Positions 7,764-26,980 are shown, counted from the stretch's first letter. The stretch is DNA of 64,000 nt from Cenarchaeum sp. (GCA_965212015.1 OZ243037.1:640001-704000), one strand, 5' to 3'. A program made the numbers and translations. Notes: generated from the letters alone by a model not told the origin.

Positions 7764-7773
7764 CTAGTCCGAT

Positions 7774-8122: not shown

Positions 8123-8283
8123 ACATCGGTGGGGCTTGAACAGTTTTGATTTTTGTAATTGGATATCGTGTTGGTGATATGGAAAACCCAAGTGAACCTG
8201 ACTCCGCCTGACACAGGACTGTGATTGCCAAAGTAATACAGGCCGTATGATTCGAGGTCGGTCCGAGCCTACCCATCCTGTCA

Positions 8284-8443: not shown

Positions 8444-8459
8444 CGGAATCCCACGATGA

Positions 8460-8621
8460 AAATACATGGTTTCCATGGTTTTTTTACATGGATTCCATGT
8501 TCTGGAAAACAGGCAAAACATGGTTTCCGTGGCTTTTTTACATGGATTCCATGTTCTGGAAAACCTGTAAAACATGGTTTCCATGTTTTAAAAAACAGGC
8601 AAAACATGGATTACATGGTTT
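8460..8621. repeat. Iteron-like array 2 (palindromic ACATGGWTTCCATG units)
   Basis: Units at 8465, 8487, 8519, 8541, 8573, 8605 (spacing 22,32,22,32,32). Confidence 0.9.
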
Positions 8622-8786
8622 GACGCGGGTCTGAATGATTCCGGCCTCTACATGAATGACAAAAGACGTTAGGAAACAAGCCTCTGCCACTCGTTTATCC
8701 TGACCGTTTCCTGAATAGCTAGATTACATCTGGGGGCTAGGATGATCCTGATACCGTTGGCCAGTGCCAGCCTTGGTGTGTGGTTT

Positions 8787-8975
8787 GGGCCGGGACTCCG
8801 GCCCGGGATGATACTGGGCAAGAGGGCCGGCTCTGCCGGCCCGACGGTGTGGTGGAACGGGGCCTCCCGTCAGGGAGCCCCGGGAAAAAGACATTGAGAT
8901 TACTGAATCGTGGTTCGTCGTTGGGGGGTTTGTGAGGTAACTGCGAGTTGGAAATCCGCGCACGAGGCTTGAAAA
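8787..8975. repeat. Conserved hairpin-rich element, copy 3
   Basis: GGGCCGG-gact-CCGGCCC, GGGCCGGC-tct-GCCGGCCC, CTCCC-gtca-GGGAG, TGTGAGGTAACTGCGAG at 8931. Confidence 0.9.
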
Positions 8976-8977
8976 AT

Positions 8978-9135
8978 GGCACTTTTGCAGTCAAAAAAAT
9001 GTAGGCAAAAGCATTTTTGCAGTCAATTTTTGGCACTTTTGCAGTCAGTAAAAAGATGCCAAAAGCATTTTTGCAGTCAAAAAAATGCAGTCAAAAGCAC
9101 TTTTGCGGTCGAAAAACGACCCTTTTGCGGTCGAA
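8978..9135. repeat. Iteron-like array 3 (TTTTGCRGTC units)
   Basis: GCRGTC at 8987, 9019, 9041, 9073, 9105, 9127 (32,22,32,32,22), plus one off-lattice copy at 9087. Confidence 0.9.
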
Positions 9136-9233
9136 ATGGATCCGGATGACAGGACGGCTCAAAAGCCAGAGCAGATAACAGAGTCGACCTGCCATCAAGA
9201 TTGAGAGACTCCCCTTGGTGATGTGGGACCTGC

Positions 9234-9551
9234 GGGCCTTGGTGACCTGTACGGGCCTTGGTGACCTGTACGAGTGTGTACGGGCCTTGGTGACCTGTAC
9301 GAGTGTGTACGGGCCTTGGTGACCTGTACGGGCCTTGGTGACCTGTACGAGTGTGTACGGGCCTTGGTGACCTGTACGAGTGTGTACGGGCCTTGGTGAC
9401 CTGTACGAGTGTGTACGGGCCTTGGTGACCTGTACGAGTGTGTACGGGCCTTGGTGACCTGTACGAGTGTGTACGGGCCTTGGTGACCTGTACGAGTGTG
9501 TACGGGCCTTGGTGACCTGTACGAGTGTGTACGGGCCTTGGTGACCTGTAC
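9234..9551. repeat. Perfect tandem repeat: 29-bp unit GGGCCTTGGTGACCTGTACGAGTGTGTAC x9 plus three 19-bp truncated units
   Basis: Counted directly; units identical, no unique spacers. Confidence 0.95.
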
Positions 9552-9565
9552 GGACTCGTATCCTG

Positions 9566-9751
9566 TCCGGGCCGGGACTCCGGCCCGGATGGTTCTGGGC
9601 AAGAGGGCCGGCTCTGCCGGCCCGATGGTGTGGAGATGGGGGCTCCCGCCAGGGAGCCCGAGGAAGAGACGTTGAGATTACTGAATGGTTCGTCGTTTGT
9701 GGGTTTGTGAGGTAACTGCGAGTTGGAAATCCGCGCGCGGGGCTTGAAAAA
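9566..9751. repeat. Conserved hairpin-rich element, copy 4
   Basis: TCCGGGCCGG-gact-CCGGCCCGGA, GGGCCGGC-tct-GCCGGCCC, GGGCTCCC-gcca-GGGAGCCC, TGTGAGGTAACTGCGAG at 9706. Confidence 0.9.
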
Positions 9752-9899
9752 CGACCTCTTTGCGGTCGGTTTTCGACCCTTTTGCGGTCGAAAAAAAGAG
9801 GTCGAAAGCACTTTTGCGGTCGAAAAACGACCCTTTTGCGGTCGAAAAAAAGAGGTCGAAAGCACTTTTGCGGTCGAAAAGCGACCCTTTTGCGGTCGA
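9752..9899. repeat. Iteron-like array 4 (TTTGCGGTCG units, 54-bp period)
   Basis: GCGGTC at 9762, 9784, 9816, 9838, 9870, 9892 (22,32,22,32,22). Confidence 0.9.
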
Positions 9900-10127
9900 T
9901 ATGGTAGGATGACAGAGCGGCTCAGGAGTCGTAGTAAGTAACACCGAGTCGGCTGGCCATCAAGATTGGAACAGACCCATTGGTCATGTGGCCTGTGGCC
10001 AGCCTTGGTGATCTGTGGGAGTCGTGACTTTTCCAGATGGTTTTGGGTAAGATGACCGGCTCTGGCCGGCTTGGTGTGTGGTCCGGCCCGGATGATTCTA
10101 GGTAAGAGGGCCAGACCTGCCGGCCCG

Positions 10128-10265
10128 AGATGGTCCTTGGCTAGTCGGGCTGGCCTACAGCCCGACGGGATTTGGTATGAGGCTCCCGCCAGGGAGCCTT
10201 GGGGAAAAGACGTTGAGATTACTGAATCGTGGTTCGTCGTTTGTGGGTTTGTGAGGTAACTGCGA
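10128..10265. repeat. Conserved hairpin-rich element, copy 5 (degenerate partial modules upstream at ~10036-10128)
   Basis: GTCGGGCTG-gccta-CAGCCCGAC, GGCTCCC-gcca-GGGAGCC, TGTGAGGTAACTGCGA at 10250. Confidence 0.9.
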
Positions 10266-10309
10266 ACCTGCTGCTACAAACACGCGCGTGCGGGGGATAT
10301 TAGGCATAT

Positions 10310-10836
10310 TTTTGCGTACACTCAGTGTACCGTCACGTAGCACCCAGTGTACGCAAAAAGGGTACACTTGGTACACTTGGTGTACCCATACGTAGCACTT
10401 GGTGTACCCAGTGTACGCAAAAAGGGTACACTTGGTACACTTGGTGTACCCATACGTAGCACTTGGTGTACCCAGTGTACGCAAAAAGGGTACACTTGGT
10501 ACACTTGGTGTACCCATACGTAGCACTTGGTGTACCCAGTGTACGCAAAAAAATGCATTTAATGCATTCAAAAAATGCATTTAATGCACTCAGTGTACGC
10601 AAAAAAATGCATTTAATGCATTCAAAAAATGCATTTAATGCACTCAGTGTACGCAAAAAAATGCATTTAATGCATTCAAAAAATGCATTTAATGCACTCA
10701 GTGTACGCAAAAAAATGCATTTAATGCATTCAAAAAATGCACTTAATGCACTTTGTGCTACCTCACGTGGCTCTTTGTGCTACCCCCGCATAGCTCTTTG
10801 TGCTCTTTGTGCTACCCCACGTAGCTCTTTGTGTCC
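10310..10836. repeat. Composite iteron-like array 5: 64-bp x3 (10345-10536), 54-bp x4 (10537-10752), CTTTGTGCTAC units (10751-10836)
   Basis: CAGTGTACGC at 10345, 10409, 10473, 10537, 10591, 10645, 10699; ATGCATTTAATGCA at 22/32 spacing; CTTTGTG at 10751, 10773, 10805, 10827. Confidence 0.92.
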
Positions 10837-11056
10837 TTTTTACCCCAAGTTGATCTGTGGCAACAGATACAGAAATTAAAGATAAATTAAATCCCGTGCG
10901 GTCACACCAACATCTGTTTTCCCGCGCCCCAAAACCAATAATGATTTCCAAACAGGACTGGCAGAATCCAAGACATCAATCAAGTAAAGGCTCAGACGCC
11001 AGAGGCATGGCGTAAGAGTCATGCTCCTGTAACTTGTGCTCGTTGTACCGCCGACA

Positions 11057-12589
11057 CTAGGATTCCCGCGCGGTTGCCCGGCGCACAAGGAACCTGCCGT
11101 CGGAGAGCTCCGTGTCCACCTCCCACCCCTGGGCAGAATGCTCCAGCAGGCTCTGTTCATCCTCGATAATTCGGCTTTCATATGGGGCATCCGCCTTGGC
11201 AGGTCTTGCCGGTATTTCCTTGGGGACCGTGACAGAATCGTTTCGGATCAGGGAAGTCGGATCCATCCCGTACATCTTGGCCTGCTGCCGCCACAGGTTG
11301 AGTAGCATGTCCTTTTTGTTAGCGCCGTCGGCCTTGAGGTCCGTAGCCAGAAACGTCTGACTCTGCGCGTACGCGCGCCTCATGTCCTCCGTCATCTGCT
11401 CTGTGAGCCTGCCCTTGTTGGTGGTGTATCGAGCCTCCATGTCGCCCTTGTGTCCCATAAAGAATTGTCTGTATGCGTGCGTCATGCACCCGTGGCTTTC
11501 GGCCATGAGCATCTGCGTGTCAAAGTATGCCCTCAGGGCGTACGGGCGGATCTTCATCACGCCCCAGATCGTCCTCCGTATGCTCTCCGATATGGCCGGC
11601 GTGGTCAGAAATAATGTGTCCGATTTCTTACGCTGCCCCCTTTCCTGGTATCCATTGTTGAACGTAATGAGCGGCGAGTCCGGTTCCAGTATATCGCCGT
11701 GCGCGATACGCTGCCGCAGATATCCCAAAAGATACTCACATCCCTGCTTTGTCAGGAACGTAAAGTACTTGTTTTTGGTCTTGCTAAGCTGGGCGCGGAC
11801 GACAATCATTGCCGGCATCTTTTCAAACGACACCCTGTCGCCGTCGATGCGCAGTTCCGGCAGATCCGAGAGTTTCAGCCCGTCACCCTTGTCAGACGTG
11901 CCCATCACCTGGGGGCGGATGCCGGAGAATGCCATCATGCCTACGATGAGCTTTGTGCGCGGGGATCCTGCGCCTAGAATCTGATCAAGTTGCTCCTGCG
12001 TGGGGACCTGCTCGTCCTCTATGCTTACCGCAATGCTGGCGTTTCTCACCTTTATTTTGCGCCTTATCTCGATGTGGTTGTATTCAAGCCACGACTTTAT
12101 CGCCTTTATCATCCCCTCTGTGTAGCCCGGCGCGTAATTCTGTTTTTCCATCCACGAGACGTGATCAAGCAGAATGTTCTCCATGTCCATTGGATTGTCG
12201 CGTCCTATGGTAACCAAGTTTGTAGGAGTCTTGTCAACCCTGTGGCAGAACAGATTGAGTCTGCGCAGCCTTACCTTTGAGTTGAGTATGCTAGAGCGCG
12301 CACAGTTTTCATACCAGCGTCTAACGTCATCATCCTTCAATAGTATAACTGGAGCTTGTGTCGTCACCTGATTCCACCGGATGTTATCAAAACGCGTTCC
12401 CCTATTTTTCCTTTTTGTTGTACGATTTTTTTCGTTAGGAATTATATTAGAGGAGTTTTCATGTTGTGTAATAACCGCGCGCTTTTTTTCCGGTTCCCTG
12501 TCAGGGCGCCGTGAGTTTGCACTCTTTATTTGTAGGCGAGGCTTGCAGTCGGCTTTTGAATTTACAGATTTTGTTTTCTGTTTTTTCAT
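11057..12589 (-). CDS. Tyrosine recombinase / site-specific integrase (start uncertain)
   Basis: SGIRP (catalytic R), RPYALRAYF, FMGH, ARYT (catalytic Y). Confidence 0.88.
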   Translation of the reverse strand: MKKQKTKSVNSKADCKPRLQIKSANSRRPDREPEKKRAVITQHENSSNIIPNEKNRTTKRKNRGTRFDNIRWNQVTTQAPVILLKDDDVRRWYENCARSSILNSKVRLRRLNLFCHRVDKTPTNLVTIGRDNPMDMENILLDHVSWMEKQNYAPGYTEGMIKAIKSWLEYNHIEIRRKIKVRNASIAVSIEDEQVPTQEQLDQILGAGSPRTKLIVGMMAFSGIRPQVMGTSDKGDGLKLSDLPELRIDGDRVSFEKMPAMIVVRAQLSKTKNKYFTFLTKQGCEYLLGYLRQRIAHGDILEPDSPLITFNNGYQERGQRKKSDTLFLTTPAISESIRRTIWGVMKIRPYALRAYFDTQMLMAESHGCMTHAYRQFFMGHKGDMEARYTTNKGRLTEQMTEDMRRAYAQSQTFLATDLKADGANKKDMLLNLWRQQAKMYGMDPTSLIRNDSVTVPKEIPARPAKADAPYESRIIEDEQSLLEHSAQGWEVDTELSDGRFLVRRATARES

Positions 12590-12703
12590 ATTGAAAGCGC
12601 CACTAGACCCGCTTCCACTGTGGGTTCGGGTCTTTCCCTGGCAAAATGCCCACAAACCGGTATCCGCGGGTGATTAACGCCCCCGCTTTTGCTGTATCGG
12701 CAA

Positions 12704-13966
12704 CTATTCTGTTTGGCCCGTCTTGGCGCTCATCAGCACCTCTAGTACCCGGTCAAGCTGTTCTGGCGTTGCCTTTTCCATGACGTTCTGTATGTGGTGT
12801 CTCTGCTCCAGTGTGGGGTCTATCTTGCTCTGATCCAGATACTCCTCGGATCGCATGAATCCCTCGCGCATCTCGGCTGTCAGGACCTCTGGCAGTATGC
12901 TCTTGTTTGTCGTGTACCTTGACTCCATGCTGCCCTTGTGTCCCATGAAAAAGACCCTAAAGTCGTGGGCTATCTTTCCCTTGGACTCTGCAATTAGCAG
13001 CTGCGTGTCAAAGTACGCCCTTAGAACGTATGGCCTCCATGTGAATCTGGGCCTGAACGTCCTTCTTACCAGATCACTTATTTGCTGCGTGGGCAGAAAC
13101 GCCTTTCTTGTATTGACGCCCCTGTGCGTCTTGTAGATATAGTCGGGCGCTACAATTGGCGCATTATCGTGCAGTGATTCCCCGTGAACCAGCCTGTCGT
13201 TCAGGTATGCCACGATGTGGCTCGTTGCGGACTGTGTCGAGAATGTAAAGTACTGGTGGCGTGCCTTTGAGAGCTCGCGCCGTACTATGATTCTGTTTGG
13301 AATTCTAACGCACTTTGCCTTTCCCTGATGGATTACCAGATCCGGCAGATCCTTCATTTGCAGTCCGTCCGTTCCGTTATGGTTTCCAATGACCTGTGGT
13401 CTGAGGCCCGACTTTGCCATCAGCGATATTATCACCGACTCGCGCAGGCCGGCCCTGCTGTATATCTCGGTCATCTCTTGCCCCTCCGGGACGCGTTCGT
13501 TTTGAAGCGTAGGGGTATAGTTTGTGGACGTCACCTTGATCTTTCTTCGTATCTCCACATCAAAGTGTCTCAGCCACGACTTTACCGTCTTGATCTGCTC
13601 CTCAATGTATCCCGGGGAATAATTCTTGGACTCCATCATGGTGATGTGATCCTCAAGCAAGTCCGTTGCAGTTCTCAGATCCCTAGTTGCCAGATCCGCC
13701 AGCTGTATCGGTGTCATCTGGTGAATCTCGCAGAACCGTCCCAGTCTCCTGAGACGCCCATCTGCTGTGATGGGGCTTCCGCGCGCCAGATTATCATGCC
13801 ATCTTTTGATGTCCGTGTTGGCCAACAGCCTTGATTTTTTTGTCTGTTTGGCAGTATCTTTTGCGTATGGTTTTGTTTTTTCCATATCTGTCAGCCTCTC
13901 GGTTACATTCTCGGTATGGTATGGTTTTGCTATTTGACTTTTGAGCGCGTTTTCCATTGTTATCAT
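12704..13966 (-). CDS. Tyrosine recombinase / site-specific integrase, paralogue of 11057-12589
   Basis: SGLRP, RPYVLRAYF, FMGH, SRYT motifs. Confidence 0.9.
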   Translation of the reverse strand: MITMENALKSQIAKPYHTENVTERLTDMEKTKPYAKDTAKQTKKSRLLANTDIKRWHDNLARGSPITADGRLRRLGRFCEIHQMTPIQLADLATRDLRTATDLLEDHITMMESKNYSPGYIEEQIKTVKSWLRHFDVEIRRKIKVTSTNYTPTLQNERVPEGQEMTEIYSRAGLRESVIISLMAKSGLRPQVIGNHNGTDGLQMKDLPDLVIHQGKAKCVRIPNRIIVRRELSKARHQYFTFSTQSATSHIVAYLNDRLVHGESLHDNAPIVAPDYIYKTHRGVNTRKAFLPTQQISDLVRRTFRPRFTWRPYVLRAYFDTQLLIAESKGKIAHDFRVFFMGHKGSMESRYTTNKSILPEVLTAEMREGFMRSEEYLDQSKIDPTLEQRHHIQNVMEKATPEQLDRVLEVLMSAKTGQTE

Positions 13967-14024
13967 GTTATCTGATACAAAGCTTTATTTAAAGATTTAC
14001 CATGTAGCATGATACAGGCTGATC

Positions 14025-14312
14025 ATGGGCATATTTATAAAAAAAATCCACGGGGCGGAATACCTGTATTTTCTGGCAGGGGATTCCCAGTATTTCCTGG
14101 GAAGAAAGGACGATCTGGAAAACCTGAACATTCAGAATCTGCGCAAGGCTGTGCGGATTGCAGACAGGAACTTTGATAGGATTTTTGTAAAATACATCCG
14201 GGATCTGCTGAAAAATGTCAGGTACATGCCCGATGATGAGAGGGCCCGGTACCTGTCCGCGCGGATTGCAAACTTGGATTCTGCGTTAAGACAGCTCAAA
14301 AATACGCGATAA
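14025..14312 (+). CDS. Hypothetical protein divergent from the integrases
   Basis: 95 aa ATG ORF; N-terminal IKKIHGAEYLY...FLG beta-rich motif; TTTATTTAAA in the shared intergenic region. Confidence 0.65.
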   Translation: MGIFIKKIHGAEYLYFLAGDSQYFLGRKDDLENLNIQNLRKAVRIADRNFDRIFVKYIRDLLKNVRYMPDDERARYLSARIANLDSALRQLKNTR

Positions 14313-14334
14313 TCATGCGATTTTTTGCAAAAAA

Positions 14335-14496
14335 TTATGACTCGTTGCCGGCCTTGAGGTAGAGCCTGTCTCCTTCCCTCTCAAAGACGATCACATCACC
14401 CTTTTCGAACCTGCAGCTGTTTCGGACCCGTTTCGGGATGGTAATCTGGTACTTGTATGATACCACGGTTGTGCCTAGGATTTCCTTGTTATTCAT
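14335..14496 (-). CDS. AbrB/MazE/SpoVT-family DNA-binding protein (53 aa, not in ORF track)
   Basis: MNNKEILGTTVVSYKYQITIPKRVRNSCRFEKGDVIVFEREGDRLYLKAGNES; QITIPKxVR...GD motif. Confidence 0.88.
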   Translation of the reverse strand: MNNKEILGTTVVSYKYQITIPKRVRNSCRFEKGDVIVFEREGDRLYLKAGNES

Positions 14497-14557
14497 GCCT
14501 TACTTGTAGGAATCGTAGGAAAAACACATAAAGTATCCCCAAGAATGTAAAGATCAC

Positions 14558-16474
14558 TTGAAAAGTAAGGCAAAAAAGGCATCTCAGATGGCCAAATGTA
14601 CTACAATGCTAAAGTGGTATTTTCCACCAACAGGTGGTGGAGTAACTCAGGGATTTAATGATGGTTCACAAGAATTCTTCCGATCTAATGCATGGGAGCA
14701 GACCATAAGAGAGATAATTCAGAATTCACTTGATGCTGTAGATGATCGAAGAGACGGGCCAGTAAAAATAAACATCTCTGAAATAACGATACCTGCATCA
14801 GAGATAGGAGCCACTGATCTTGCTGGCCACATAAGCAAGGCTTTGGAACGCACTAGAAAACAAGAATCCACCACAGGGAGTAAATTTTACGAAAATGCAT
14901 TGAAGGTTTTAAATCAAAATGAGATCAAAATGCTTGCAATAACTGATACTAACACTACAGGTTTAGTGGATGAAAAATGGGATGCGCTGATATATGATGA
15001 AGGTACATCAAGTAAAGGTGGTATAAATGCAGCAGGAGGAAGTTTTGGCATTGGAAAAAATGCACCATATGTGGTTTCAGATTTAAAAACTGTATGTTAT
15101 TCCACACGATATCTAGGCAAGGGAAGAATTGAAAAGTTTATTGCTCGATGCAAGATTTCTGCACATGAGAATCCCGATGAATCTTCTAAAGAAATGCTAC
15201 AACACATAGGATTTGGAACTAAAACAAAATTAGCAAAAAATATTCGTCCTTTACCAACAGAAGGAAGTGACATTCATCAACTATTTCGTCTTGATGAATA
15301 TGGAAGTGGAATATTTATTATGGGATTTAATCCACAACTAAAAAATTGGATCAAAGTGGCCAAAAAATCTATAGCACATAATTTTTTTGTTGCAATACAT
15401 GAAAAGAAATTAGAAATTTATATAAATTCTGATCCGATAAACTATGAAACATTAGATGGTATATTTGAGGATGATCGTAAAAAAGAACCTACTCGTCACT
15501 ATTATCATATCATCCGTGATGATATTAAGAAAGAAATTGTAGAAGGAGATCTGGGAAAATTTACAGTACAAATAAATATTGATGATGAAGATGCACCAAA
15601 CCAAATTGCATATATAAACCGAAGAGGAATGATGGTAACTGACAAGCGTATTTTCGATGAAAATCCATTTTATACGGCAGTTGGAAAAGGTTGGGCCAAA
15701 TATGCAGTAGTAATTATGTCACATGATGATGCAACAGATATGAAAATACGTATGATGGAGCCGCCTAACCATCAATCAATCGAATACAAGCGCATCAATG
15801 ATCATAAAAAACGAGATTCTATGGAACGACAACTTCGTGTCATAAAAAATAAAATTACTGATATTATTAACAACGCAATTTCCGACAGTAATCATGAACA
15901 TGACATAAATCTATCAGAACTTGCAGACATATTGCCTTTTCCTGATGATTCAGGAAAAGAAGGTATTGAACAAAGTGAAAAAGATCAGTCTCTAGATCAT
16001 CATACTATAGAGTCTGGCACATCATCTCATATCGTAGATGATGATGGATTAGATTCAGGTAAAAAGTTAGGTGGGACCTCAGATACACATGGAAAGAATC
16101 ATAAATCTATTTCTGGTCGCAAAATAAGCAGTAAAGGAACACCAATTTTGCATCGTCAGCGAATTGTGCGCAGCAAGGATATACTCCGTGTTGCATTTAC
16201 ATCACGTCAAAATAATGGAAAACCAGTGTGCTTTGGCATCAAACCTGTAGGTGAAGAAAGAAAAAATGAAATCATGATTCCAATAACTTCGGCCCGTGTG
16301 GAAACACCATCGAATTTTACCATTAAAATGAATAACAATCGTATAACCATGACTCCAAAATATGATGAACGGGTTGTAATGGATCTAAAAATACCTCAAA
16401 CCAAGTCATATACAGGATATGAGATCATTGAAATAGTACAAAACAAAAAACCCTCAAAAGGTAATAAAAAATGA
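14558..16474 (+). CDS. GHKL-like ATPase domain protein
   Basis: REIIQNSLDA, ITDTNTTGL, GGSFGIGK motifs; first gene of an overlapping operon. Confidence 0.75.
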   Translation: MKSKAKKASQMAKCTTMLKWYFPPTGGGVTQGFNDGSQEFFRSNAWEQTIREIIQNSLDAVDDRRDGPVKINISEITIPASEIGATDLAGHISKALERTRKQESTTGSKFYENALKVLNQNEIKMLAITDTNTTGLVDEKWDALIYDEGTSSKGGINAAGGSFGIGKNAPYVVSDLKTVCYSTRYLGKGRIEKFIARCKISAHENPDESSKEMLQHIGFGTKTKLAKNIRPLPTEGSDIHQLFRLDEYGSGIFIMGFNPQLKNWIKVAKKSIAHNFFVAIHEKKLEIYINSDPINYETLDGIFEDDRKKEPTRHYYHIIRDDIKKEIVEGDLGKFTVQINIDDEDAPNQIAYINRRGMMVTDKRIFDENPFYTAVGKGWAKYAVVIMSHDDATDMKIRMMEPPNHQSIEYKRINDHKKRDSMERQLRVIKNKITDIINNAISDSNHEHDINLSELADILPFPDDSGKEGIEQSEKDQSLDHHTIESGTSSHIVDDDGLDSGKKLGGTSDTHGKNHKSISGRKISSKGTPILHRQRIVRSKDILRVAFTSRQNNGKPVCFGIKPVGEERKNEIMIPITSARVETPSNFTIKMNNNRITMTPKYDERVVMDLKIPQTKSYTGYEIIEIVQNKKPSKGNKK

Positions 16475-17307
16475 GTCATACGAACTTCTTGCTACCACAT
16501 CCAATAATTAAACCTGGAGGATTTGACTACAATGAAAATTGTCACTTTGACATAGAGATAAAACAGGCCACGACACTTGATGGAAATATCCACATTGAGA
16601 TATCATGTGATCTGTCCAGTTTTACTATAAATGATCTCATAAAGAAAGAAAAAGCAAAATTTTTTATTACTTTAAAATGTGTTAAAACCCATCAAAGAAT
16701 CACACATAGCTTTACAGAAACTTCCATGGTTTGGGATATTCCGATGTCTAACTGTGTCGATAAAATAAACATAACGCCATATGTGGCAACAACTGAGGAA
16801 ATACCAGCATTTTACTCCAAAGAACATGATGATGAAATTCAACAAATGATTCCTGATGGCGTAGATCTTCCGACAGGTGCCATTTTGGCAGTAGGAAAAT
16901 CACACGAAATCACGATTGATGCGATAGAAAAGATCCAAGCTGCCATCAAGATAATCCAAAATAAGGAATTGGAAGTAGGAACTTACGCCATAGACACCAG
17001 TGGCGATTATCTAGACATTCAAATGCATCCTAAAACACAAAACAGCATACGTAATATACACAACCAATCAGTAGAACTTTTGTATCCATCAATTTACCTG
17101 ACTGCCATCGAACAAGCCATACGTGATATGGAAAATTATAAAGATCGCAAATGGGCACAAGCTTTGCACAAAACTCTAGAAAAACACAATATTGAGATTG
17201 ATTATGATAAATTAAAGGAAGAAGCAAATAAGCATGCCCAGACAATACTGAACAAACCATTGGATCGCATCATACAATGGCACAATCGAGAGAATGAATA
17301 TGATTGA
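16471..17307 (+). CDS. Hypothetical protein
   Basis: 278 aa; stop/start overlaps with both neighbours as given in the ORF track. Confidence 0.8.
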   Translation: MSHTNFLLPHPIIKPGGFDYNENCHFDIEIKQATTLDGNIHIEISCDLSSFTINDLIKKEKAKFFITLKCVKTHQRITHSFTETSMVWDIPMSNCVDKINITPYVATTEEIPAFYSKEHDDEIQQMIPDGVDLPTGAILAVGKSHEITIDAIEKIQAAIKIIQNKELEVGTYAIDTSGDYLDIQMHPKTQNSIRNIHNQSVELLYPSIYLTAIEQAIRDMENYKDRKWAQALHKTLEKHNIEIDYDKLKEEANKHAQTILNKPLDRIIQWHNRENEYD

Positions 17308-18919
17308 AAGAGAACCCCTTTACAGATTTACCCATGAAGCATTTGAAATGTTATTCAAGAACTTTGAAAAACATCTTGAACATTACAAGAATCCTGATGC
17401 AGATTTTATCAAACTATTAACAGAGAATGGAATCAATAATTACAAAGAACCAATAATCGCGCATATCATTAATCCAATCAAACTTGAATTGACAGAGGGC
17501 AAACCATCCCATCTAGCAGACATTCAGGCACTCGATTTTTATAATTCCTTTGAAGGCATGACGCCTAGACTTGCGTCAGATCCACGTGTACTGGCATATC
17601 TGAATCATTTTTATTTTCACAAGTATGGCATTGCTCGCTGGCCGATATCTGCAAGCACAAAACCAGAACATATGCGTAGACATTGGCTTACGCGTAGCAC
17701 AGAAAATACTCACATATGGAAATCAAACATTTCGGGCAGAACCTGGTGGATTGCACATATGGCCATCAAGGCAGCAGAGTCTTCGGCCGGCACATTTGAT
17801 GCAAAGCAAGCATTGAAAAAATTTACAGAAGCTCCAGAATATTACCATCGCACCATGGAATATGCCATACTCAAAAATCATACGCTTATGGCAGAATTCA
17901 TCAGAGCATTACACAGGGAGGCAGAGGGTATAAACCGTGATGGATACATAGCCATGGCAAAGGAATTAAACCTGGAGGCTGGTGCAAGGCTAATTGATTC
18001 GCTGGACAGACAATACCTGCGTAAACTAGTACAGCGTGCAGCAGATCGTCAGATGTGCAATCCAAAATCTGTTACAAATCGCAAATATATTCATAATGTG
18101 AAAAAATTCAAAGTGTTGAGTTTGGGAGCTGGAGCACAGTCTACCGTGTTGGCGCTCATGGCAGAAGAGGGATGGAATGGACTTGAAAAACCAGATCTAG
18201 CTATATTTGCAGATACTCAATGGGAACCACCGAATGTATACGAGCACCTAGATTGGTTAGAAAAACAGCTATCGTATAAGGTAATTCGAGTATCTGCAGG
18301 AAACATACGTGAGAACATACTAAACGGTGTCAATTCAGATGGAGACAAATTTATGGACATACCGGCATTTTTAGTAAATCCTGATGGAAGTAAATCCGTG
18401 GCCCGCAGACAATGCACTACGCATTATAAAATAAGACCCATACACAAGGAGCTTAGAAAACACCTCGGCATACCAACCGGTCGACGTGCTCCAAAAGATA
18501 TTCAGGTAGAAATGTGGCTGGGTATTAGTGCAGATGAATCAAATAGAATTAAACCTAGCAGAGATGAATGGATCGACAATCGATATCCACTTATTGAAAA
18601 GGACATGACCCGGGCCAACATATACAATTGGTTTAGTGAGAGGTATCCGGATCGTCGTTTGCCTCGCAGTGCATGCGTAGGATGTCCTTACCACAACAAC
18701 ATGGAGTGGAAATGGATCAAAGAAAACGATCCGGATTCATTTGAGGAAGCAGTCAATGTTGACTGGTCGCTTCGTAATGTTCAAAAGACACGTGGTACAC
18801 TCAAAGGAGATGCGTACTTGCATCACACGCGCAAACAGTTAAACAAAGTGGATTTTAGCAAGACAGAAAATTATGATGACTATATGGCGAGCGAATGTGA
18901 GGGACTCTGTGGTGTCTGA
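17294..18919 (+). CDS. Fusion: DUF6339-like N-terminal domain + PAPS-reductase-like PP-loop domain with Cys clusters
   Basis: N-term TPRLASDPRVLAYLNH..ARWP..ISGRTWW; C-term LSLGAGAQST, AIFADTQWEP, RQCTTHYKI, WLGISADE, YPL, SACVGCP, ECEGLC. Confidence 0.75.
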   Translation: MNMIEREPLYRFTHEAFEMLFKNFEKHLEHYKNPDADFIKLLTENGINNYKEPIIAHIINPIKLELTEGKPSHLADIQALDFYNSFEGMTPRLASDPRVLAYLNHFYFHKYGIARWPISASTKPEHMRRHWLTRSTENTHIWKSNISGRTWWIAHMAIKAAESSAGTFDAKQALKKFTEAPEYYHRTMEYAILKNHTLMAEFIRALHREAEGINRDGYIAMAKELNLEAGARLIDSLDRQYLRKLVQRAADRQMCNPKSVTNRKYIHNVKKFKVLSLGAGAQSTVLALMAEEGWNGLEKPDLAIFADTQWEPPNVYEHLDWLEKQLSYKVIRVSAGNIRENILNGVNSDGDKFMDIPAFLVNPDGSKSVARRQCTTHYKIRPIHKELRKHLGIPTGRRAPKDIQVEMWLGISADESNRIKPSRDEWIDNRYPLIEKDMTRANIYNWFSERYPDRRLPRSACVGCPYHNNMEWKWIKENDPDSFEEAVNVDWSLRNVQKTRGTLKGDAYLHHTRKQLNKVDFSKTENYDDYMASECEGLCGV

Positions 18920-19241
18920 AATCGTATCACAACTAATGTTGAAAAAAATTCCTTTCGACTATGATTTTCACAATCATTTAAACAATTCTGGTGGATTGTA
19001 TTGCTTTTGGTTGCGCAATAGTTGTCTTTATGTGGGCATGAGTGAGGATCTAAAGAGGCGTATTGCACAACATAGCCATAAGGAAGATAATCCGGAATTG
19101 ATCAAATATTTCAGAACATGTCCAGATGAAATCGAAATATCCATAGTGTATCTAGATCTTACTGCAAACAAGCTCAGAAACATCGAATCAAGAGCCATAC
19201 TAGAATTACATCCAGTGGCCAATAGGCAAGGAATTTCTTAG
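18912..19241 (+). CDS. GIY-YIG nuclease
   Basis: GLYCFW...LYVGMS..LKRRIAQH...E...N motif; GTG overlaps upstream stop. Confidence 0.75.
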   Translation: MSEIVSQLMLKKIPFDYDFHNHLNNSGGLYCFWLRNSCLYVGMSEDLKRRIAQHSHKEDNPELIKYFRTCPDEIEISIVYLDLTANKLRNIESRAILELHPVANRQGIS

Positions 19242-19289
19242 GTATGATCATGCCATTTGAATATCTTTTACTTTCCATGGAGATATGTC

Positions 19290-20549
19290 ATGACTAGCTC
19301 ATATCCTGCACTACGAGGAAAATTTGGAAAGACAGATTATTTTTTGACTGCCATGCCAGTAGGAGAATTGATCAGTCGTGTCACATTCCCAATAGATCTT
19401 CCAGGCTGGGAGAACCGCTCCATAGAGGAGAGATTTCAGCGAAAGATCGATATAAGGAGAATTAGACGTGACATTGCTCCATATTTTGCAAATGATGAGA
19501 ATAGATTTTCTGGTGCACTGGTACTGGCAGTACTAAATTCTGATAAAATGATACTAGAATCATTACAAGATATTGCAGGAGTCAGTAATAATATCCCAAA
19601 ATTGTATAATAGTGTTATCGGTGATATGGGATTCCTGATAATGTCGGGAGATGAAGTTTTTGTTCCACTTGACGGACAGCATAGGGCTAAGGCATTCAAA
19701 CTTGCAATAGAAGGCTATAAGGATAGTAGTAAGGTAGCCCCATTAATACGGCCTAATCCAGATCTGGCAAAGGACAAAGTCGCTGTGATATTGGTTCGTT
19801 TTGACGACTTGATGTCCAGATATATATTCAACAAGATAAACCGATACGCAAAGCCTACCACCAAGGCTGACAAATTGATTACTGACGATGATAATGCCGT
19901 AGCAGTAATAACAAGGCAGATGATAAGTGACGGTGTCATTCCGGAACGTCTAGTGAACATAGACACAAACTCACTTAGCAAAACAATGCACGAATTTACA
20001 ACACTTTCTACGTTTTATGATGCCAACATGTACCTTCTGTCTGGATTACAGGTTGCCAGTATAGCAAATCCAGAAAAAATGTCCAAACCTGAAAGGGAGA
20101 TGCGATTAACAGAAGTAAGCGCAGAATGGAAGCGTTTGATATCTGGAATTGGTTTGTGGAAAAAAGCCCTCAAGGATCCATCCATAAAAGGGGATGACAT
20201 ACGCAAAAAGATCCGCAAGGAATACTTGCTAGGTAAACCCATCGGTCAGCTCTCGCTGGTAGGCGGATACGCCTTTACATGTCAGAGGCACAGGAATGAG
20301 GTGGATAGAGATCTCCTAATAAGACGACTAGATAAGATAGATTGGAGGGTGCGCACAAAGATGTGGTCAGGAGTGCTGATCCGTCAAAACGGCAGGATCA
20401 TGTCGGGAAGACCGACAGCAAAAAATGCCATCAAGTTCATAGCTTATCTCATAGGTGCTGAGCTGACAAAACTAGAGAAGGACAGCATTTTAGGATGGAT
20501 TTATGGCGACAGATGGAAAAAGAATGTTCTTCCAGAACCGATCAAATGA
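19290..20549 (+). CDS. DndB-family / DGQHR-domain protein
   Basis: ERFQRKID, PLDGQHR, IFNKINRYAKP motifs. Confidence 0.85.
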   Translation: MTSSYPALRGKFGKTDYFLTAMPVGELISRVTFPIDLPGWENRSIEERFQRKIDIRRIRRDIAPYFANDENRFSGALVLAVLNSDKMILESLQDIAGVSNNIPKLYNSVIGDMGFLIMSGDEVFVPLDGQHRAKAFKLAIEGYKDSSKVAPLIRPNPDLAKDKVAVILVRFDDLMSRYIFNKINRYAKPTTKADKLITDDDNAVAVITRQMISDGVIPERLVNIDTNSLSKTMHEFTTLSTFYDANMYLLSGLQVASIANPEKMSKPEREMRLTEVSAEWKRLISGIGLWKKALKDPSIKGDDIRKKIRKEYLLGKPIGQLSLVGGYAFTCQRHRNEVDRDLLIRRLDKIDWRVRTKMWSGVLIRQNGRIMSGRPTAKNAIKFIAYLIGAELTKLEKDSILGWIYGDRWKKNVLPEPIK

Positions 20550-20615: not shown

Positions 20616-22037
20616 TTATGGCAAAGGAATTGGGTTGAATCCGTACTCATTACAAATACCATAATGGTTTATGATGACAGGTTCCCATCCCCTACCTATA
20701 TCTAATTGATCTAAAGAATTTTTTAACTCTTCTATCTGATCATAATACAGTGCATTTCTATCGATCAAGCTATCCAGAAATTTTTCCTCTGGTAACGAAT
20801 TGCTTTTTTTACAATTGCATTTTTGACACGATAAAACCAAATTCCATGGATGATCGTCATAAATATAGGACCATGGAATAAAGTGATCCACATGTGTAGA
20901 ATCATATTTTAGTTTGTTTTTACAGTAAAAACATTGATCAACATATTCAGAATATATTTTTCTGTATTCTGTCAATGACCCTCTTACTGGATCATTATGT
21001 TCTAGCTTTGCAACCAATCTAGGTAATGAATGGTTAATTTTTTCCAAGAATTTTGCCCACTGTGCAAGAACTACTTGGGATAATATCCTGTTGTTTTTAC
21101 GGAAAAAACTAAAAGCTTCTGGCTTTAGATATAGCATTTTTGCAGAGTTATCATAATTATAAAATATCCTGATATCTTCTGAATCATTACTAGTTGTGAT
21201 ATTTTGAAATGCAGGAATCACAATTGATTTTTTTCCTCTGATTGTACCAAATACGTTTTTGAGTATTTCTCCTTCCGCATTTTTGATGTCTTTTTTCTTA
21301 AGAAGTTCAAAATCAGCTGGAGGATTATTCCCAAAAACACTGTTTATTGCTTTTATTACATTTGGTTTTCCGCTTGTCCTAAAATCCTGTTTCATTTTGA
21401 ATTTGTATTCTTGATGCCAGTAATATTTTAGAAATTTACTTGCAAAATATTGATATGGTATTTCATGTATTTGTTTCTCTTCCGTAGTATCTTTGCAATA
21501 ATCTAACAGTGATTTAGCAAGGGTAAATTTGTACGTATTAGATTTGGGCGAATCTGCAATTATGGATAAAAATGCTCGTTTCAGATCTTTTTCTGAAACA
21601 TCTGATTCTATATACGGGTTTGTATCTTGTATGAATCTCTTTTCACCATTAGTCATTACCGGTTTTTTAATTGGTTTATTTGATAGCTTGTCAAGTCGGA
21701 ATATTCCAAAATGTTTTGAACTGTTCCAATCTATCAGCTTTTTGTTGCTTCGTAGCTTGGAAATCTCTTGATCTATGATATTTGGAAATTTATTAGATGT
21801 ACGATATGATCCCCACATACTAGGATCTAATTTTAATTCTCTTCCTACTGATGATATCAGATCAGTTCTGCTATGCCAAATTTTCTCATTTTGATGCTTT
21901 AATTGTAATTTATCTCCTGACTTGTCATCACGATGATTTGTAATGGTAGGTATGGTCTTGCCTTTTTGGTTTAGAACATATAGGACTAGCTCAGATGTGA
22001 ATTTACGAGGTATTTTACCAGATCGACTTATTGCCAT
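20616..22037 (-). CDS. HNH endonuclease with N-terminal accessory domains
   Basis: NTYKFTLAKSL; CFYC...HVDHFIPWS...NLVLSCQKCNCKKSN. Confidence 0.88.
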   Translation of the reverse strand: MAISRSGKIPRKFTSELVLYVLNQKGKTIPTITNHRDDKSGDKLQLKHQNEKIWHSRTDLISSVGRELKLDPSMWGSYRTSNKFPNIIDQEISKLRSNKKLIDWNSSKHFGIFRLDKLSNKPIKKPVMTNGEKRFIQDTNPYIESDVSEKDLKRAFLSIIADSPKSNTYKFTLAKSLLDYCKDTTEEKQIHEIPYQYFASKFLKYYWHQEYKFKMKQDFRTSGKPNVIKAINSVFGNNPPADFELLKKKDIKNAEGEILKNVFGTIRGKKSIVIPAFQNITTSNDSEDIRIFYNYDNSAKMLYLKPEAFSFFRKNNRILSQVVLAQWAKFLEKINHSLPRLVAKLEHNDPVRGSLTEYRKIYSEYVDQCFYCKNKLKYDSTHVDHFIPWSYIYDDHPWNLVLSCQKCNCKKSNSLPEEKFLDSLIDRNALYYDQIEELKNSLDQLDIGRGWEPVIINHYGICNEYGFNPIPLP

Positions 22038-22953: not shown

Positions 22954-23973
22954 TTATTCCTCATCATTTTTCATCCATTTCTCACTCATGACCGACTGTT
23001 GGTAACCTATCTTCGCAATACCCGTCTTGGCATCACATAGTTGAACACGATTGATTTTAAGACGTACAGAGTATGTATGAGTCAAGTCCTTGCTTTCCAG
23101 GACACATTTGTGTAGTGTGGTAATTATTTCATTCTTGGCACCTAGTTCAGCTTCAAGGCTGTAAGGTGTATCCAAATTTAGCAATTTGTTATATTCTCCA
23201 TACAGCTTCATAATATTCTCCATTAATTCTTCTGGTACGTCTATTATGCTCAATCCTAAATCATCCTTTGCTTCCCTTCTGCCTATCAGATAATTATGAG
23301 AGAATCTTTCCTCTATGAGAATTTTTACAATGGTGTCTATTTTCTTCTCATCGGTCATATGTTGTTTGAGCAGGGTTTTTGACAGGAACCTAATCTCGTT
23401 TCTTGATCTATTCACGGCACCAAGAACCAGCGGATGGAGTCCGCCTGCCAACACGGCCATGATCTTGGTCAGCTCCTCCTCCGAATCAGTTTTTGCCTCT
23501 TTTTTTGCAAGATCAAAAAAACTTACAACATCTTCCACATTGACTGGCATGTTGACCTGTATTGTGGGATTTTGTGGGTGTGGGAATTTTGGTCCCAGTG
23601 GATGTGTCAGGGAGGGATCCACGGGGCCGAGTTGCCCAATCTTTGACATGATTATTGAATTGGCCCCAAGGGTCATCAGAGTTCCGGTGCTTAGGCACTT
23701 GAATGGGACTATCATTCCATATTCCTTACAATACTCCCTTATCAAATTCACAATCCCATATCCAGATATTGTAATTCCGCCCGTAGTGTAAATCAATAGG
23801 TTGATTTTTTGAGTAGATTTTATCTTGTCCAAATGCTTATAGATGAACGGAATCACATCCGATGAAATTTTTGCCTCTAATCCTTTTCGGTCTCCAGTCA
23901 TGTAAACTAGAATCTTGGAATTTGTCTGTTCTTCAATCTTTTTGATCAGTTCCAGACGATTTTGTCGTCCCAT
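22954..23973 (-). CDS. SDH/ClpP-class serine protease-like protein
   Basis: YTTGG, CLSTGTLMTLGA, LGPVDP, SHNYLIGRREA motifs. Confidence 0.8.
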   Translation of the reverse strand: MGRQNRLELIKKIEEQTNSKILVYMTGDRKGLEAKISSDVIPFIYKHLDKIKSTQKINLLIYTTGGITISGYGIVNLIREYCKEYGMIVPFKCLSTGTLMTLGANSIIMSKIGQLGPVDPSLTHPLGPKFPHPQNPTIQVNMPVNVEDVVSFFDLAKKEAKTDSEEELTKIMAVLAGGLHPLVLGAVNRSRNEIRFLSKTLLKQHMTDEKKIDTIVKILIEERFSHNYLIGRREAKDDLGLSIIDVPEELMENIMKLYGEYNKLLNLDTPYSLEAELGAKNEIITTLHKCVLESKDLTHTYSVRLKINRVQLCDAKTGIAKIGYQQSVMSEKWMKNDEE

Positions 23974-24864: not shown

Positions 24865-25995
24865 TTACAGTGTAAAGTTTGTAGCAGACTCATAGTTCTT
24901 GTTAAGATCCGGAAATTGTGCAAACAGCTCGTCCAGATATTCCTGCGTATCGTTAAACGGCCTTAGCAGCTCCAGATGGTTTGCATCCGGATAGTGCTCC
25001 AGCAAAAACTCGCCAAACTCCTTTATCGGAGGTGATCCGTTTCTCTCTTCAGGCGGGATGTAATTCGGCGAGTTTAGTATGTCGGTTGAGTTGTATTGCT
25101 TGCCTACATATACCGGTGCATTTTCAAGCAGCTCATCAGAAAGACCACCCACAATATCTCCCTCATATACTCTTGCCGTGCCGTTGTCAATTATAAAAGT
25201 ATAATTCGGTCCGACATTGTGGTAAAATAATATGGAAAGATATCCTACCGGAGGAAATCTGGGATCAGGCTCGTTGATTACCACCGGAATTTGTAGGTAA
25301 AGTTTTTGTGTATTGTTAAATGGCAGATCAATTCTGCCTTCAGATGTGACGACAGGCGGCCTATAATCATAATGCGTATAGTCTTCTGCCCTGAATAAAT
25401 CCTCGTGATTAATCGAGATAAACGTCGAATATGAGGCATGTATGGCATCACCGTACGGATACGTCCGTTCATAGTCGTCATATTCCAGCCTCTCCTCATA
25501 GTCATCATAACCGGCATCCTTGTCCGGTACCACATATTCGTATTCGAGATCGATTAAAAATTCCTCGCCTATGTTGACTATTTTTGGTGCCTTGAATGTG
25601 TACTTGGGCCAGTACTCATATTTGAAAACAGGACCCATCATCATTTCAAATCCAATCGCCTCTGATGATTCATCCAGATTGGATGTCATTATCGTCTCTC
25701 CGACTGTCATGTTCTTGTCTTGGATTGTGTAATCATCAGTCTGTACATTTCGTTCATCCAAAATGGGCACACCCCATCCCCTCTCCAAGAGCTTGGCCAG
25801 CGTATCATCAAAGACGCAGGCCAGCTTTCCATGCGGTGATTCTATCAGATTTTTATCCTCGCTGCATTGTATGGCAAATGCGTCGGGTAGAGCAATCATG
25901 CCGGCTGTCAATACTGCCAGAATTCCTAGGATTTTGAACATTGTTATTGAATATGGCAAAATCATACTAATAAATGAATCATACAGATTCCACAA
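24865..25995 (-). CDS. Secreted/surface hypothetical protein (thaumarchaeal type)
   Basis: Signal peptide ending AFA; C..LACV...KLLERGW motif; acidic composition; start likely at MFKILG. Confidence 0.7.
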   Translation of the reverse strand: MWNLYDSFISMILPYSITMFKILGILAVLTAGMIALPDAFAIQCSEDKNLIESPHGKLACVFDDTLAKLLERGWGVPILDERNVQTDDYTIQDKNMTVGETIMTSNLDESSEAIGFEMMMGPVFKYEYWPKYTFKAPKIVNIGEEFLIDLEYEYVVPDKDAGYDDYEERLEYDDYERTYPYGDAIHASYSTFISINHEDLFRAEDYTHYDYRPPVVTSEGRIDLPFNNTQKLYLQIPVVINEPDPRFPPVGYLSILFYHNVGPNYTFIIDNGTARVYEGDIVGGLSDELLENAPVYVGKQYNSTDILNSPNYIPPEERNGSPPIKEFGEFLLEHYPDANHLELLRPFNDTQEYLDELFAQFPDLNKNYESATNFTL

Positions 25996-26458: not shown

Positions 26459-26980
26459 ATGAGGATTTCCGCAAAGATGAAAAAATCGCTCAATGATCAG
26501 ATCGCAATGGAGGCCTATGCCTCGCAGTACTATCTCTCGATGGCCTCCTGGTGCGAACTGACCGGCTATGACGGCTCTGCAAAATTCCTGCACAAGCAGG
26601 CAGACGAGGAAAGAATGCACATGATGAAAATAATCCAGTATCTAAACGAGATAGGAGCCGGCGCCGTCATACCCGCAGTGGGGCAGCCCCCCTCGACATT
26701 CAAGTCCCTAGAGCTGATATTTCAGGCCATTCTTAAAAACGAGCAGGCGGTGACTGCCTCGTTTAGCAGAATGGCCGAGCTTGCCCAAAAGGACAAGGAT
26801 CATACGACGTTTGCCTTTTTGCAGTGGTTCATAAGCGAGCAGATCGAGGAGGAAAAAACCGCCGAGACAATACTCCAAAAATTCGTCCTTCTCGGCAATG
26901 ACAAGATAGGGATATACGAGGTGGATAAAATTCTAGACGCAATGTCCGCCCAGATGGGCGCACAGCAGCAGGTTAAATGA
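26459..26980 (+). CDS. ftnA: Non-heme ferritin
   Basis: EERMHMMK, FLQWFISEQIEEE ferroxidase motifs. Confidence 0.93.
   Translation: MRISAKMKKSLNDQIAMEAYASQYYLSMASWCELTGYDGSAKFLHKQADEERMHMMKIIQYLNEIGAGAVIPAVGQPPSTFKSLELIFQAILKNEQAVTASFSRMAELAQKDKDHTTFAFLQWFISEQIEEEKTAETILQKFVLLGNDKIGIYEVDKILDAMSAQMGAQQQVK

Follow-up and report, generated by a model that had tools for sequence, protein, structure and literature searches.

A five-gene archaeal operon matching the predicted defence candidate PDC-M33 and carrying a DUF6339::PP-loop fusion

The operon and its five genes

We analysed a window of 64,000 nucleotides (nt) from Cenarchaeum sp. (GCA_965212015.1), corresponding to positions 640001-704000 of one 1.76-Mb contig (OZ243037.1), in which five genes at 14558-20549 form a putative modification-restriction operon; positions are those of the window unless they are given as genome positions. 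Gene 1 (A; 14558-16474, +) encodes 638 amino acids (aa) from a TTG start, the public call of the same protein having 628 aa, and is followed by gene 2 (B; 16471-17307, +; 278 aa), gene 3 (C; 17294-18919, +; 541 aa), gene 4 with a GIY-YIG domain (18873-19241, +; 122 aa) and gene 5 with a DGQHR domain (19257-20549, +; 430 aa from a TTG, with an ATG at 19290). All five are plus-strand open reading frames (ORFs) at the positions claimed in a preliminary description of this DNA, and the first four overlap as it had noted, by 4 nt, 14 nt and 47 nt, with a 15-nt gap before gene 5. The true start of gene 4 may lie downstream of the 47-nt overlap. The GC content of the operon DNA is 0.37-0.40, versus 0.51-0.56 past 26 kb of the window. 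As the A-B-C order is preserved in 38 loci that carry a gene 3-type fusion and the complete five-gene set occurs in 11 loci, the joint conservation on which the preliminary description depended is found, and the five ORFs are a real, co-linear and conserved operon.

Gene 3 (C) encodes a fusion of two domains. Its N-terminal half (17294..18085, +) is assigned to the helical domain DUF6339 by Pfam (1.5e-20, aa 81-247) and to PDC-M33C by PADLOC (2.2e-25), and residues H105, R115, W152 and G230 are invariant between fused and stand-alone DUF6339 proteins. The DUF6339 family comprises 2,652 representatives (E<=1e-3), and one protein, P0292 (430 aa), joins DUF6339 to the C-terminal B3-like DNA-binding domain of the restriction enzyme NgoFVII. 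The matches listed in structure searches with the model of the whole fusion cover the PP-loop half only; for the DUF6339 half, in a limited test, a PDB profile search gave designed helical repeats only, and the Atlas gave no usable match.

The C-terminal half (18086..18919, +; 277 aa) is predicted to have a PP-loop/PAPS-reductase fold of the SspD/DndC/BrxP superfamily, in a mobile-element-type subfamily. The Pfam model PAPS_reduct scored 22.3 bits on gene 3, against a cut-off of 22.5, and the PADLOC SspD model matched it at 2.1e-18 with 65 bits (aa 273-493, profile positions 2-202 of 277). Genuine SspD proteins score 340-452 bits across profile positions 1-277; accordingly, the PP-loop half falls below a family-level SspD score, although its homology to SspD is clear from the sequence comparison. 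In the predicted structure of gene 3 (predicted local distance difference test, pLDDT, 88.9), this half superposes on PAPS reductase 7rge (Z 13.4, root-mean-square deviation 3.9, 167 aligned), on APS reductase 2goy (Z 12.1) and on the [4Fe-4S] tRNA thiolase NcsA (Z 11.6), and also on LarE, TtuA, Cap9, YcfA and GMP synthetase. At the level of the model, a Rossmann-like PP-loop fold of the PAPS-reductase type is therefore confirmed in gene 3, and the DUF6339::PP-loop fusion named in the preliminary description holds. The PP-loop half shares 27-28% identity end to end with genuine SspD, with RxCT, DExxR, SxCxxCxY and a C-terminal Cys in common, and five cysteines are kept in every PP-loop group (the fusions, the unfused copies and SspD). 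The PP-loop motif itself varies between these groups: 37 of 38 fusions have SLGAGxQS and unfused copies SLGGGxQS, whereas three genuine SspD proteins read SGG[RK]DS.

Gene 1 corresponds to PDC-M33A in PADLOC (1.7e-84) and gene 2 to PDC-M33B (1.6e-32). For gene 1, Pfam and NCBIfam returned nothing, a PDB profile search returned Topo VI-B alone (E 0.22-0.69), and hhalign gave a probability of 5.7% against verified HATPase_c_3 proteins. The earlier label "GHKL-like" is recovered by predicted structure only: with the AlphaFold model (pLDDT 76.7), Foldseek returned 267 PDB chains with E<=1e-3, with TRAP1/Hsp90 (best E 4.5e-9) and Topo VI at the top. In its layout, a Bergerat-fold GHKL ATPase and a middle domain are joined by a disordered linker (aa ~439-517) to a beta domain at the C-terminus, and an alignment of 18 homologues has the conserved blocks E42/N46/D49-A50, DxNTTGL and GGSFGIGK, which we take to be GHKL/Bergerat-fold motifs. 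By its model, then, gene 1 is predicted to be a GHKL ATPase with a Bergerat fold and a transducer/middle domain. No family was found for gene 2 in Pfam, NCBIfam, a PDB profile search (best E 1.4) or the Atlas, where it matched unnamed clusters only. A single database protein, P0262 (536 aa), which may be an assembly artefact, is a B::DUF6339 fusion (hhalign 100%, E 3.5e-53). A, B and DUF6339 are co-conserved across about 70 loci, and this, together with the P0262 and P0292 fusions, hints at a joint action of the three on DNA.

The assignment of gene 4 to the GIY-YIG nucleases in the preliminary description was borne out: the Pfam score of 22.4 bits lies just below the cut-off of 22.6, and GLY...YVGMS, R63, H67, E105 and N117, presumably the catalytic residues of a GIY-YIG domain, are invariant in 11 of 11 orthologues. 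The protein therefore has the hallmark residues of a small stand-alone GIY-YIG nuclease, as which we classify it by sequence. Likewise, and as expected from the earlier description, gene 5 matches Pfam DndB (4.3e-36), scores 83.9 bits with the NCBIfam model of the DGQHR domain (cut-off 58.85) and carries a DGQHR motif, which is invariant in 11 of 11 orthologues; its 86.7 bits against the DndB equivalog TIGR03233 are well under the cut-off of 328. It is a DGQHR-domain protein, DndB-like and of the ParB superfamily.

A PP-loop domain or a C5 methylase beside the same trio

We searched species-representative genomes with a profile of the ATPase (A) and took the best 80 of 457 stretches, equal to 79 loci, which with the window gave 80 loci. 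Neighbourhoods of +-10 kb were fetched, and C5 methylases were detected with a profile built from the neighbouring methylase cluster, whose representative matches Pfam DNA_methylase at 1e-60. The 80 loci comprise 38 with the DUF6339::PP-loop fusion, 2 with a separate PP-loop gene, 37 with a stand-alone DUF6339 and 3 without a recognisable DUF6339, and protein B was found by phmmer in 73 of them. Hosts of the fusion trio belong to Nitrososphaerota, Chloroflexota and Actinomycetota, and the fusion forms at least 120 full-length clusters at 51-100% identity, from sources that include Pirellulales, Thaumarchaeota and Chloroflexi.

A C5 methylase is present in none of the 40 fusion or split loci, in 29 of the 37 stand-alone loci and in two of the three others (Fisher p 3e-14, uncorrected for relatedness). 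Since the counts are 0 of 40 versus 29 of 37, the PP-loop domain and the C5 methylase are mutually exclusive alternatives. The link between the trio and a C5 methylase, which the preliminary description had put forward, thus exists in most of the loci with a stand-alone DUF6339, and its proposal that a PAPS-reductase-like enzyme replaces the methylase is supported by the same counts. No other methylase was found among 77 scanned flanking ORFs of fusion loci, and the window itself has no match to the C5-methylase profile at 4001-31000, the part scanned for methylases, in line with the earlier remark that no methyltransferase is present. In the two loci with a separate PP-loop gene (L037 and L038), this gene lies directly upstream of A, the place of the methylase in most methylase-type loci; the methylase-type loci also hold Vsr, MutY-like and MutH-like genes. 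The gene order, the domain identities, the exclusivity of methylase and PP-loop domain and the neighbourhoods are all direct observations on these loci.

A quick tree of the PP-loop domains, rooted at its midpoint, groups all 38 fused domains together (support 93), places five unfused copies as their sister group (96) and sets canonical SspD far off. We rejected the idea that the fused domain is a recent copy of SspD, in view of its low identity to SspD and its own distant clade. The twelve archaeal fusions (L001-L007, L020, L021, L028, L036 and the window) make up a single clade (99) inside those of Chloroflexota and Actinomycetota, which indicates horizontal transfer. Many of the host metagenome-assembled genomes (MAGs) carry names of sponge symbionts, an observation that points to transfer between bacteria and archaea within one habitat.

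A tblastn search recovered the PP-loop half alone (aa ~270-541; 37-47% identity) from 80 phage records and 238 plasmid records; the DUF6339 half is covered by 0 of the 80 and 0 of the 238, and none of these records spans at least 80% of the fusion. Of three stand-alone copies whose contexts were inspected, two lie in phage replication regions and one on a conjugative Agrobacterium plasmid beside a DUF1738 gene. Further stand-alone copies are found on conjugative/integrative elements (L094, L095), beside ParB (L099) and beside a module of helicase, HATPase_c_3 and PLD genes (L097), and an unfused four-gene form, A-B-DUF6339-PP-loop, occurs in L096 and L100. SspD-like or fusion-type PP-loop genes adjoin ParB_N/HTH_ParB genes in L090, L092 and L099, an echo of the DGQHR gene of the window with its ParB-superfamily kinship. 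We know of no experimental test of the function of the stand-alone "PAPS reductase" proteins of phages and plasmids.

In 11 loci, every one from Nitrososphaerota, the trio is followed up by genes 4 and 5; in the twelfth archaeal locus (L021) the sequence stops 92 bases past gene 3, and one locus from Dehalococcoidia (L023) has a distant DGQHR gene. Given this confinement to the archaeal clade, A-B-C is the core and genes 4 and 5 are a clade-specific accessory, holding the place that proteins with DUF262 and a nuclease domain have in bacterial loci. Because gene 5 co-occurs with the GIY-YIG nuclease in one clade only, the two genes would fit an effector pair at least as well as the regulator role that the preliminary description had given to gene 5. 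Docking of the two proteins scored 0.32, versus 0.00 for the best control, with at least 87% of contacts agreeing between runs and a partner pLDDT of at least 82. Of 80 solved complexes, 58 reach the docking mark, as do 2 of 110 mismatched pairs, and at scores of at most 0.60 it is reached by 7 of the 80 and both mismatches; these counts hold roughly only, own alignments having been used, and we treat the predicted pairing as a weak lead.

Phosphorothioation genes and the surrounding island

A canonical sspABCD set shares the low-GC island with the operon and lies 16-25 kb upstream of it, with SspB and SspC at 20-25 kb. It consists of sspA (genome 629160-630326), sspB (genome 630323-631276), sspC (genome 631273-634617; 1,005 bits) and sspD (genome 637371-638207; 365 bits), and is interrupted between sspC and sspD by a 191-aa orphan ORF and a 561-aa HNH_2 gene on the opposite strand. 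After sspD comes a GmrSD-type (HEC-06/Orf5-like) gene that ends at genome 640223 and thus occupies 1-223 of the window. The earlier remark that the window holds no DndA, DndD or DndE stands for the genes that were scanned, but a canonical set for phosphorothioate (PT) synthesis is situated just outside (genome 629160-638207).

With canonical SspD defined as a score of at least 340 bits, it occurs in 14 of the 38 fusion genomes (13 of 37 excluding that of the window), in most cases on a different contig or at a distance of over 80 kb, and in 3 of the 37 genomes with a stand-alone DUF6339. It is absent from 24 of the 38, though such absences are soft because many of these genomes are MAGs, and in 6 genomes, those of L010, L013, L014, L026, L027 and L034, the fusion is the sole SspD-like match. 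The 24 genomes lacking canonical SspD suggest that the fused domain is more than an add-on to Ssp, and by this distribution the fusion appears neither to require nor to exclude Ssp. The separate PP-loop genes of L037 and L038 encode genuine SspD proteins (437 and 439 bits) and come after SspC (1,215 bits in L037), and L038 has the order SspA, SspB (338 bits), SspC in two ORFs, SspD, A, B, DUF6339 and SspE (779 bits). The DUF6339 of the window is 45% and 43% identical to those of L037 and L038, respectively, versus 16-21% to methylase-linked DUF6339 proteins. The possibility that the trio substitutes for SspB and SspC was rejected, as SspB, SspC and the trio coexist in L038.

A true SspE (786 bits) follows the fusion in L032, and a GmrSD-type gene (DUF262 and DUF1524) is near the fusion in 8 of the 38 loci, directly after it in 6; PADLOC labels these GmrSD-type genes as Orf5, HEC-06 or a type IV enzyme, their SspE matches being weaker. 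In L039 the genes just ahead of the fusion are PbeA (662 bits) and PbeC (169 bits), and genes of the same clusters are present in L010, L026 and L030, although this clustering is mixed, a Bacillaceae representative scoring better as a type IV enzyme. In L018, L024 and L029, a HATPase_c_3 GHKL gene and a PLD-like gene come after the fusion. Judged by these profile matches, genes of PT-linked restriction (SspE, GmrSD-like, PbeA/PbeC) recur beside the fusion. Two loci (L031 14457-18186 and L032 5905-9590) have a second, divergent GHKL gene (PDC-M33A, 1e-24) with two unassigned genes (clusters c62 and c61), head-to-head or tail-to-tail with the fusion trio; this set may represent a paralogue of the trio whose B and C cannot be recognised.

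Upstream of the operon, the window has a three-gene module on the minus strand, consisting of a helicase with ResIII/Helicase_C (483-2108), a HATPase_c_3 GHKL protein, MzaB-like in PADLOC (2109-3845), and a weakly matched PLD/DrmC-like protein (3937-4902). The same helicase, GHKL and PLD combination is the one found beside the stand-alone PP-loop gene of L097, and its GHKL and PLD part the one after three of the fusions; it may be a second PT-linked restriction module. Because sspABCD, the GmrSD-type gene and this module precede the operon, the operon belongs to a defence island of ~37 kb that already holds a canonical PT writer. At the edge of the low-GC stretch, 4904-5677 (-) encodes a protein with DUF2196 (3.5e-25) and Schlafen AlbA_2 (1e-9).

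The region 6800-10900 contains a conserved segment of ~170 nt with a GC-rich hairpin in 4-5 copies (about 7770-7940, 8803-8976, 9584-9751 and 10032-10265), each followed by its own short tandem-repeat array. The tandem repeats have units of 39 nt (6851-7640), 54 nt (8486-8621, 8983-9139, 9780-9904 and 10469-10792), 29 nt (9190-9610) and 64 nt (10342-10551). The ORFs within this region are probably spurious, and Rfam gave no family at gathering score for 6000-14600. Directly upstream of the operon, 11057-12655 and 12704-13966 (both -) encode paralogous large proteins with weak matches to XerA-type tyrosine recombinases (E 5e-5 and 3e-3). Shorter relatives of these proteins lie directly upstream of the operon in L001 too, beside DDE transposases, which suggests that the operon travels with XerA-like recombinase genes. 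On the other side, convergent with the operon, minus-strand genes encode a Cas9/IscB-type HNH protein of 473 aa (20616-22037), an orphan of 129 aa, a ClpP-like serine protease of the SDH type (22954-23973) and a protein with a WING-49 domain (24865-25995), and a ferritin gene at 26459-26980 marks the return to high-GC DNA. No tRNA was found within the window, where the island edges were checked.

Possible function and relation to known systems

We put at about an even chance the reading that the operon is a defence system of the modification-restriction type in which the fused PP-loop domain writes a PT-like mark; its DNA substrate, PT product, complex formation and anti-virus activity are what we infer from the loci described above. 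The PP-loop domain of gene 3 would be the writer, using ATP to activate the DNA backbone and installing sulfur to give PT or a closely related mark, with a chemistry like that of its relatives SspD, DndC, BrxP and TdpC and with a cysteine desulfurase encoded elsewhere in the genome as the sulfur source. The GHKL protein, B and DUF6339 might form a conserved complex that examines DNA and works as an ATP-driven switch, as in MutL- or MORC-type GHKL proteins, licensing the cutting of unmarked DNA. The nuclease would be a swappable accessory, for which the archaeal clade may use gene 4 (GIY-YIG) and gene 5 (DGQHR) as a two-part counterpart of the proteins with DUF262 and a nuclease (GmrSD-like, SspE) that come after bacterial fusions. 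The occurrence of lone PP-loop genes on phages and plasmids is as expected of an enzyme that acts on DNA by itself. Thiolation or an adenylation-activated modification, which the preliminary description proposed as the self mark, survives in part: a sulfur or backbone mark is our best guess for the product of gene 3, since the PP-loop domain is a relative of SspD and PT-linked restriction genes adjoin the fusion.

Several points weigh against such a writer. The canonical SGGxDS motif is not present, its Asp being replaced by Gln in 37 of the 38 fusions, and the activity of an ATP pyrophosphatase is therefore not assured; moreover, the PP-loop fold also occurs in enzymes whose substrates are tRNA, cofactors, nucleotides or proteins (NcsA, LarE, YcfA and Cap9). 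According to the sections of PMC12914056 on PT synthesis, the Dnd, Ssp and Brx systems need a PAPS-reductase domain together with a P-loop NTPase (DndD, SspC or BrxC), and an isolate with a PAPS reductase beside an ATPase had no detectable PT; the operon has no P-loop NTPase, its ATPase being of the GHKL type. Searches of A, B and DUF6339 gave no nuclease domain, and in many fusion loci a nuclease could not be recognised beside the trio. The counts behind the exclusivity of methylase and PP-loop domain are phylogenetically non-independent and come from the 80 best of 457 stretches, and the PDC systems are presented as predicted candidates in the part of bioRxiv 10.1101/2024.01.29.577857 that introduces them. 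Finally, with sspABCD 16 kb upstream, the operon might serve or depend on the SspABCD of its own genome.

This last point leads to the strongest of the alternatives, which we nevertheless hold to be improbable: the operon could be an accessory reader or effector module of the SspABCD in its island, comparable to SspE or SspFGH, with a fused domain that binds PT-DNA or the Ssp machinery, or has a regulatory role, instead of writing the mark. The shared low-GC island, the loss of the PP-loop Asp, the trio embedded in a canonical Ssp locus in L037 and L038, whose DUF6339 proteins are the closest unfused relatives of that of the window, and the higher frequency of canonical SspD in fusion genomes than in those with a stand-alone DUF6339 are all in agreement with such a module. 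However, that higher frequency may reflect a shared habitat or taxon, many of the loci being from sponge-associated MAGs, and most fusion genomes have no canonical SspD, which elsewhere is mostly distant from the fusion. The cysteine set and the other catalytic-type motifs are invariant in the fused domain, which argues for a retained chemistry, and its close stand-alone homologues occur as lone genes on phages and plasmids.

The chemistry of the PP-loop domain could also differ from backbone PT, for instance as base thiolation or amidation through an adenylate, or as a modification of proteins or nucleotides like that of Cap9 in CBASS. We rate this as rather unlikely. The structural neighbours within 4 Z units do include the tRNA thiolases NcsA and TtuA, the thioguanine enzyme YcfA, LarE, Cap9 and GMP synthetase (Z 9.7-11.6), the fused domain is its own PP-loop variant and far from canonical SspD in the quick tree (branch lengths 5.7 + 0.68 + 3.95), and the operon offers no P-loop NTPase as a partner; yet SspD is the only match of the fused domain in the defence library, its recurrent neighbours are the PT-associated SspE and PbeA/PbeC, and those defence members for which PMC12914056 states a product in the sections on these systems (Dnd, Ssp, Tdp and BREX type 4) are reported to make PT. 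We consider very unlikely a function in a mobile element, such as self-marking or maintenance of an integrative element that is merely sited in a defence island. It would account for the stand-alone PP-loop homologues on phages and conjugative/integrative elements, some of them beside ParB-type genes, for the two recombinase-like genes directly upstream with their relatives at L001, and for the horizontal transfer implied by the nested archaeal clade; on the other hand, the full-length fusion is in none of the 80 phage or 238 plasmid records, the defence candidate to which the trio corresponds was discovered through embedding in known systems, and the neighbours are overwhelmingly restriction-type genes.

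Should the fused domain prove to be a writer, the consequences would reach beyond this operon. It is conceivable, though we find it somewhat doubtful, that DNA phosphorothioation has a fifth, self-contained family in the DUF6339::PP-loop trio, or that this trio makes a new sulfur- or adenylation-dependent DNA mark, with a single fused writer derived from phage and plasmid "PAPS reductases", hard-wired to MutL/MORC-like GHKL surveillance and plug-in nucleases, and transferred between bacteria and archaea. This would give the "PAPS reductase" genes of phages and plasmids a DNA-marking function, and if the writer is active alone, it would suggest a function for hundreds of them, with an archaeal example from Nitrosopumilaceae, whose defence biology is little studied. 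The locus points to a further and widespread architecture, in which the putative writer is fused to an orphan domain and has a GHKL ATPase as partner in place of a P-loop NTPase, and the methylase and PP-loop versions of one conserved trio are a natural experiment in re-tuning a restriction machine to another self mark.

Among known systems, the closest is PDC-M33. The preliminary description had counted on the operon matching no described system; in fact, genes 1, 2 and the N-terminal half of gene 3 match the A, B and C models of this predicted PADLOC candidate and are adjacent and co-oriented in the order of the stand-alone form. However, the best PDC-M33C matches are stand-alone DUF6339 proteins of ~245-340 aa, whereas the window adds a PP-loop domain of 277 aa and has no C5 methylase. 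The PDC systems are introduced as 145 candidates obtained by "guilt by embedding" in known systems (bioRxiv 10.1101/2024.01.29.577857, main part). In the literature searched, we found no paper on PDC-M33 or DUF6339, and none that combines PAPS reductase, GHKL and defense. On these matches, we regard the operon as a variant of PDC-M33 in a previously unreported fusion form.

The SspABCD-SspE system resembles the operon in that the fused domain is homologous to SspD, in that SspE or a protein with DUF262 and DUF1524 follows the fusion in several loci, and in that gene 5 (DGQHR) with gene 4 (nuclease) recalls the NTPase-plus-nuclease logic of SspE, as outlined in part of PMC8092258. It differs in its SspB nickase and SspC ATPase, which none of the five operon proteins matches in PADLOC, while the operon has SLGAGxQS as its PP-loop motif and a GHKL ATPase and two orphan proteins as partners. 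The PT of the Ssp system is CpsC within CCA motifs. As for Dnd, DndC, DndD and DndE are matched by no operon protein at E<=0.01 in PADLOC, a search of the five operon proteins. TdpABC is, like the operon, compact, a three-gene PT system, and a precedent for a lone writer that needs neither DndD nor SspC, since tdpC alone suffices for PT, through an adenylated intermediate, in the account of tdpABC given in PMC12914056. No Tdp, Dnd or Ssp title is among the top 50 structural matches listed for gene 3, and no Tdp title among those listed for the model of gene 1, which does not thereby exclude Tdp. TdpA is said to be a hexameric translocase, unlike the GHKL protein.

The stand-alone "PAPS reductases" of phages and plasmids are related to the operon through the C-terminal half of gene 3 (aa ~270-541), to which they are 37-47% identical, and unfused copies are sister to the fused domains, but they occur without DUF6339, A and B. 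Four gene families, dnd, ssp, tdp and BREX type 4, are listed as reported for sulfur in the DNA backbone where PMC12914056 enumerates them, and the last resembles the operon in its evolutionary logic: in the passages of that source on BREX type 4, the PAPS-reductase protein BrxP, a fusion of SspD-like and SspB-like parts, replaces PglX and makes PT with BrxC. The operon, too, has a PAPS-reductase-type protein in the place of a methyltransferase and fused to another component. It differs in that none of its five proteins matches BrxP, BrxC, BrxZ or BrxL at E<=0.01, in that the fusion partner is DUF6339 and not DUF4007, and in that its ATPase is of the GHKL and not the P-loop type.

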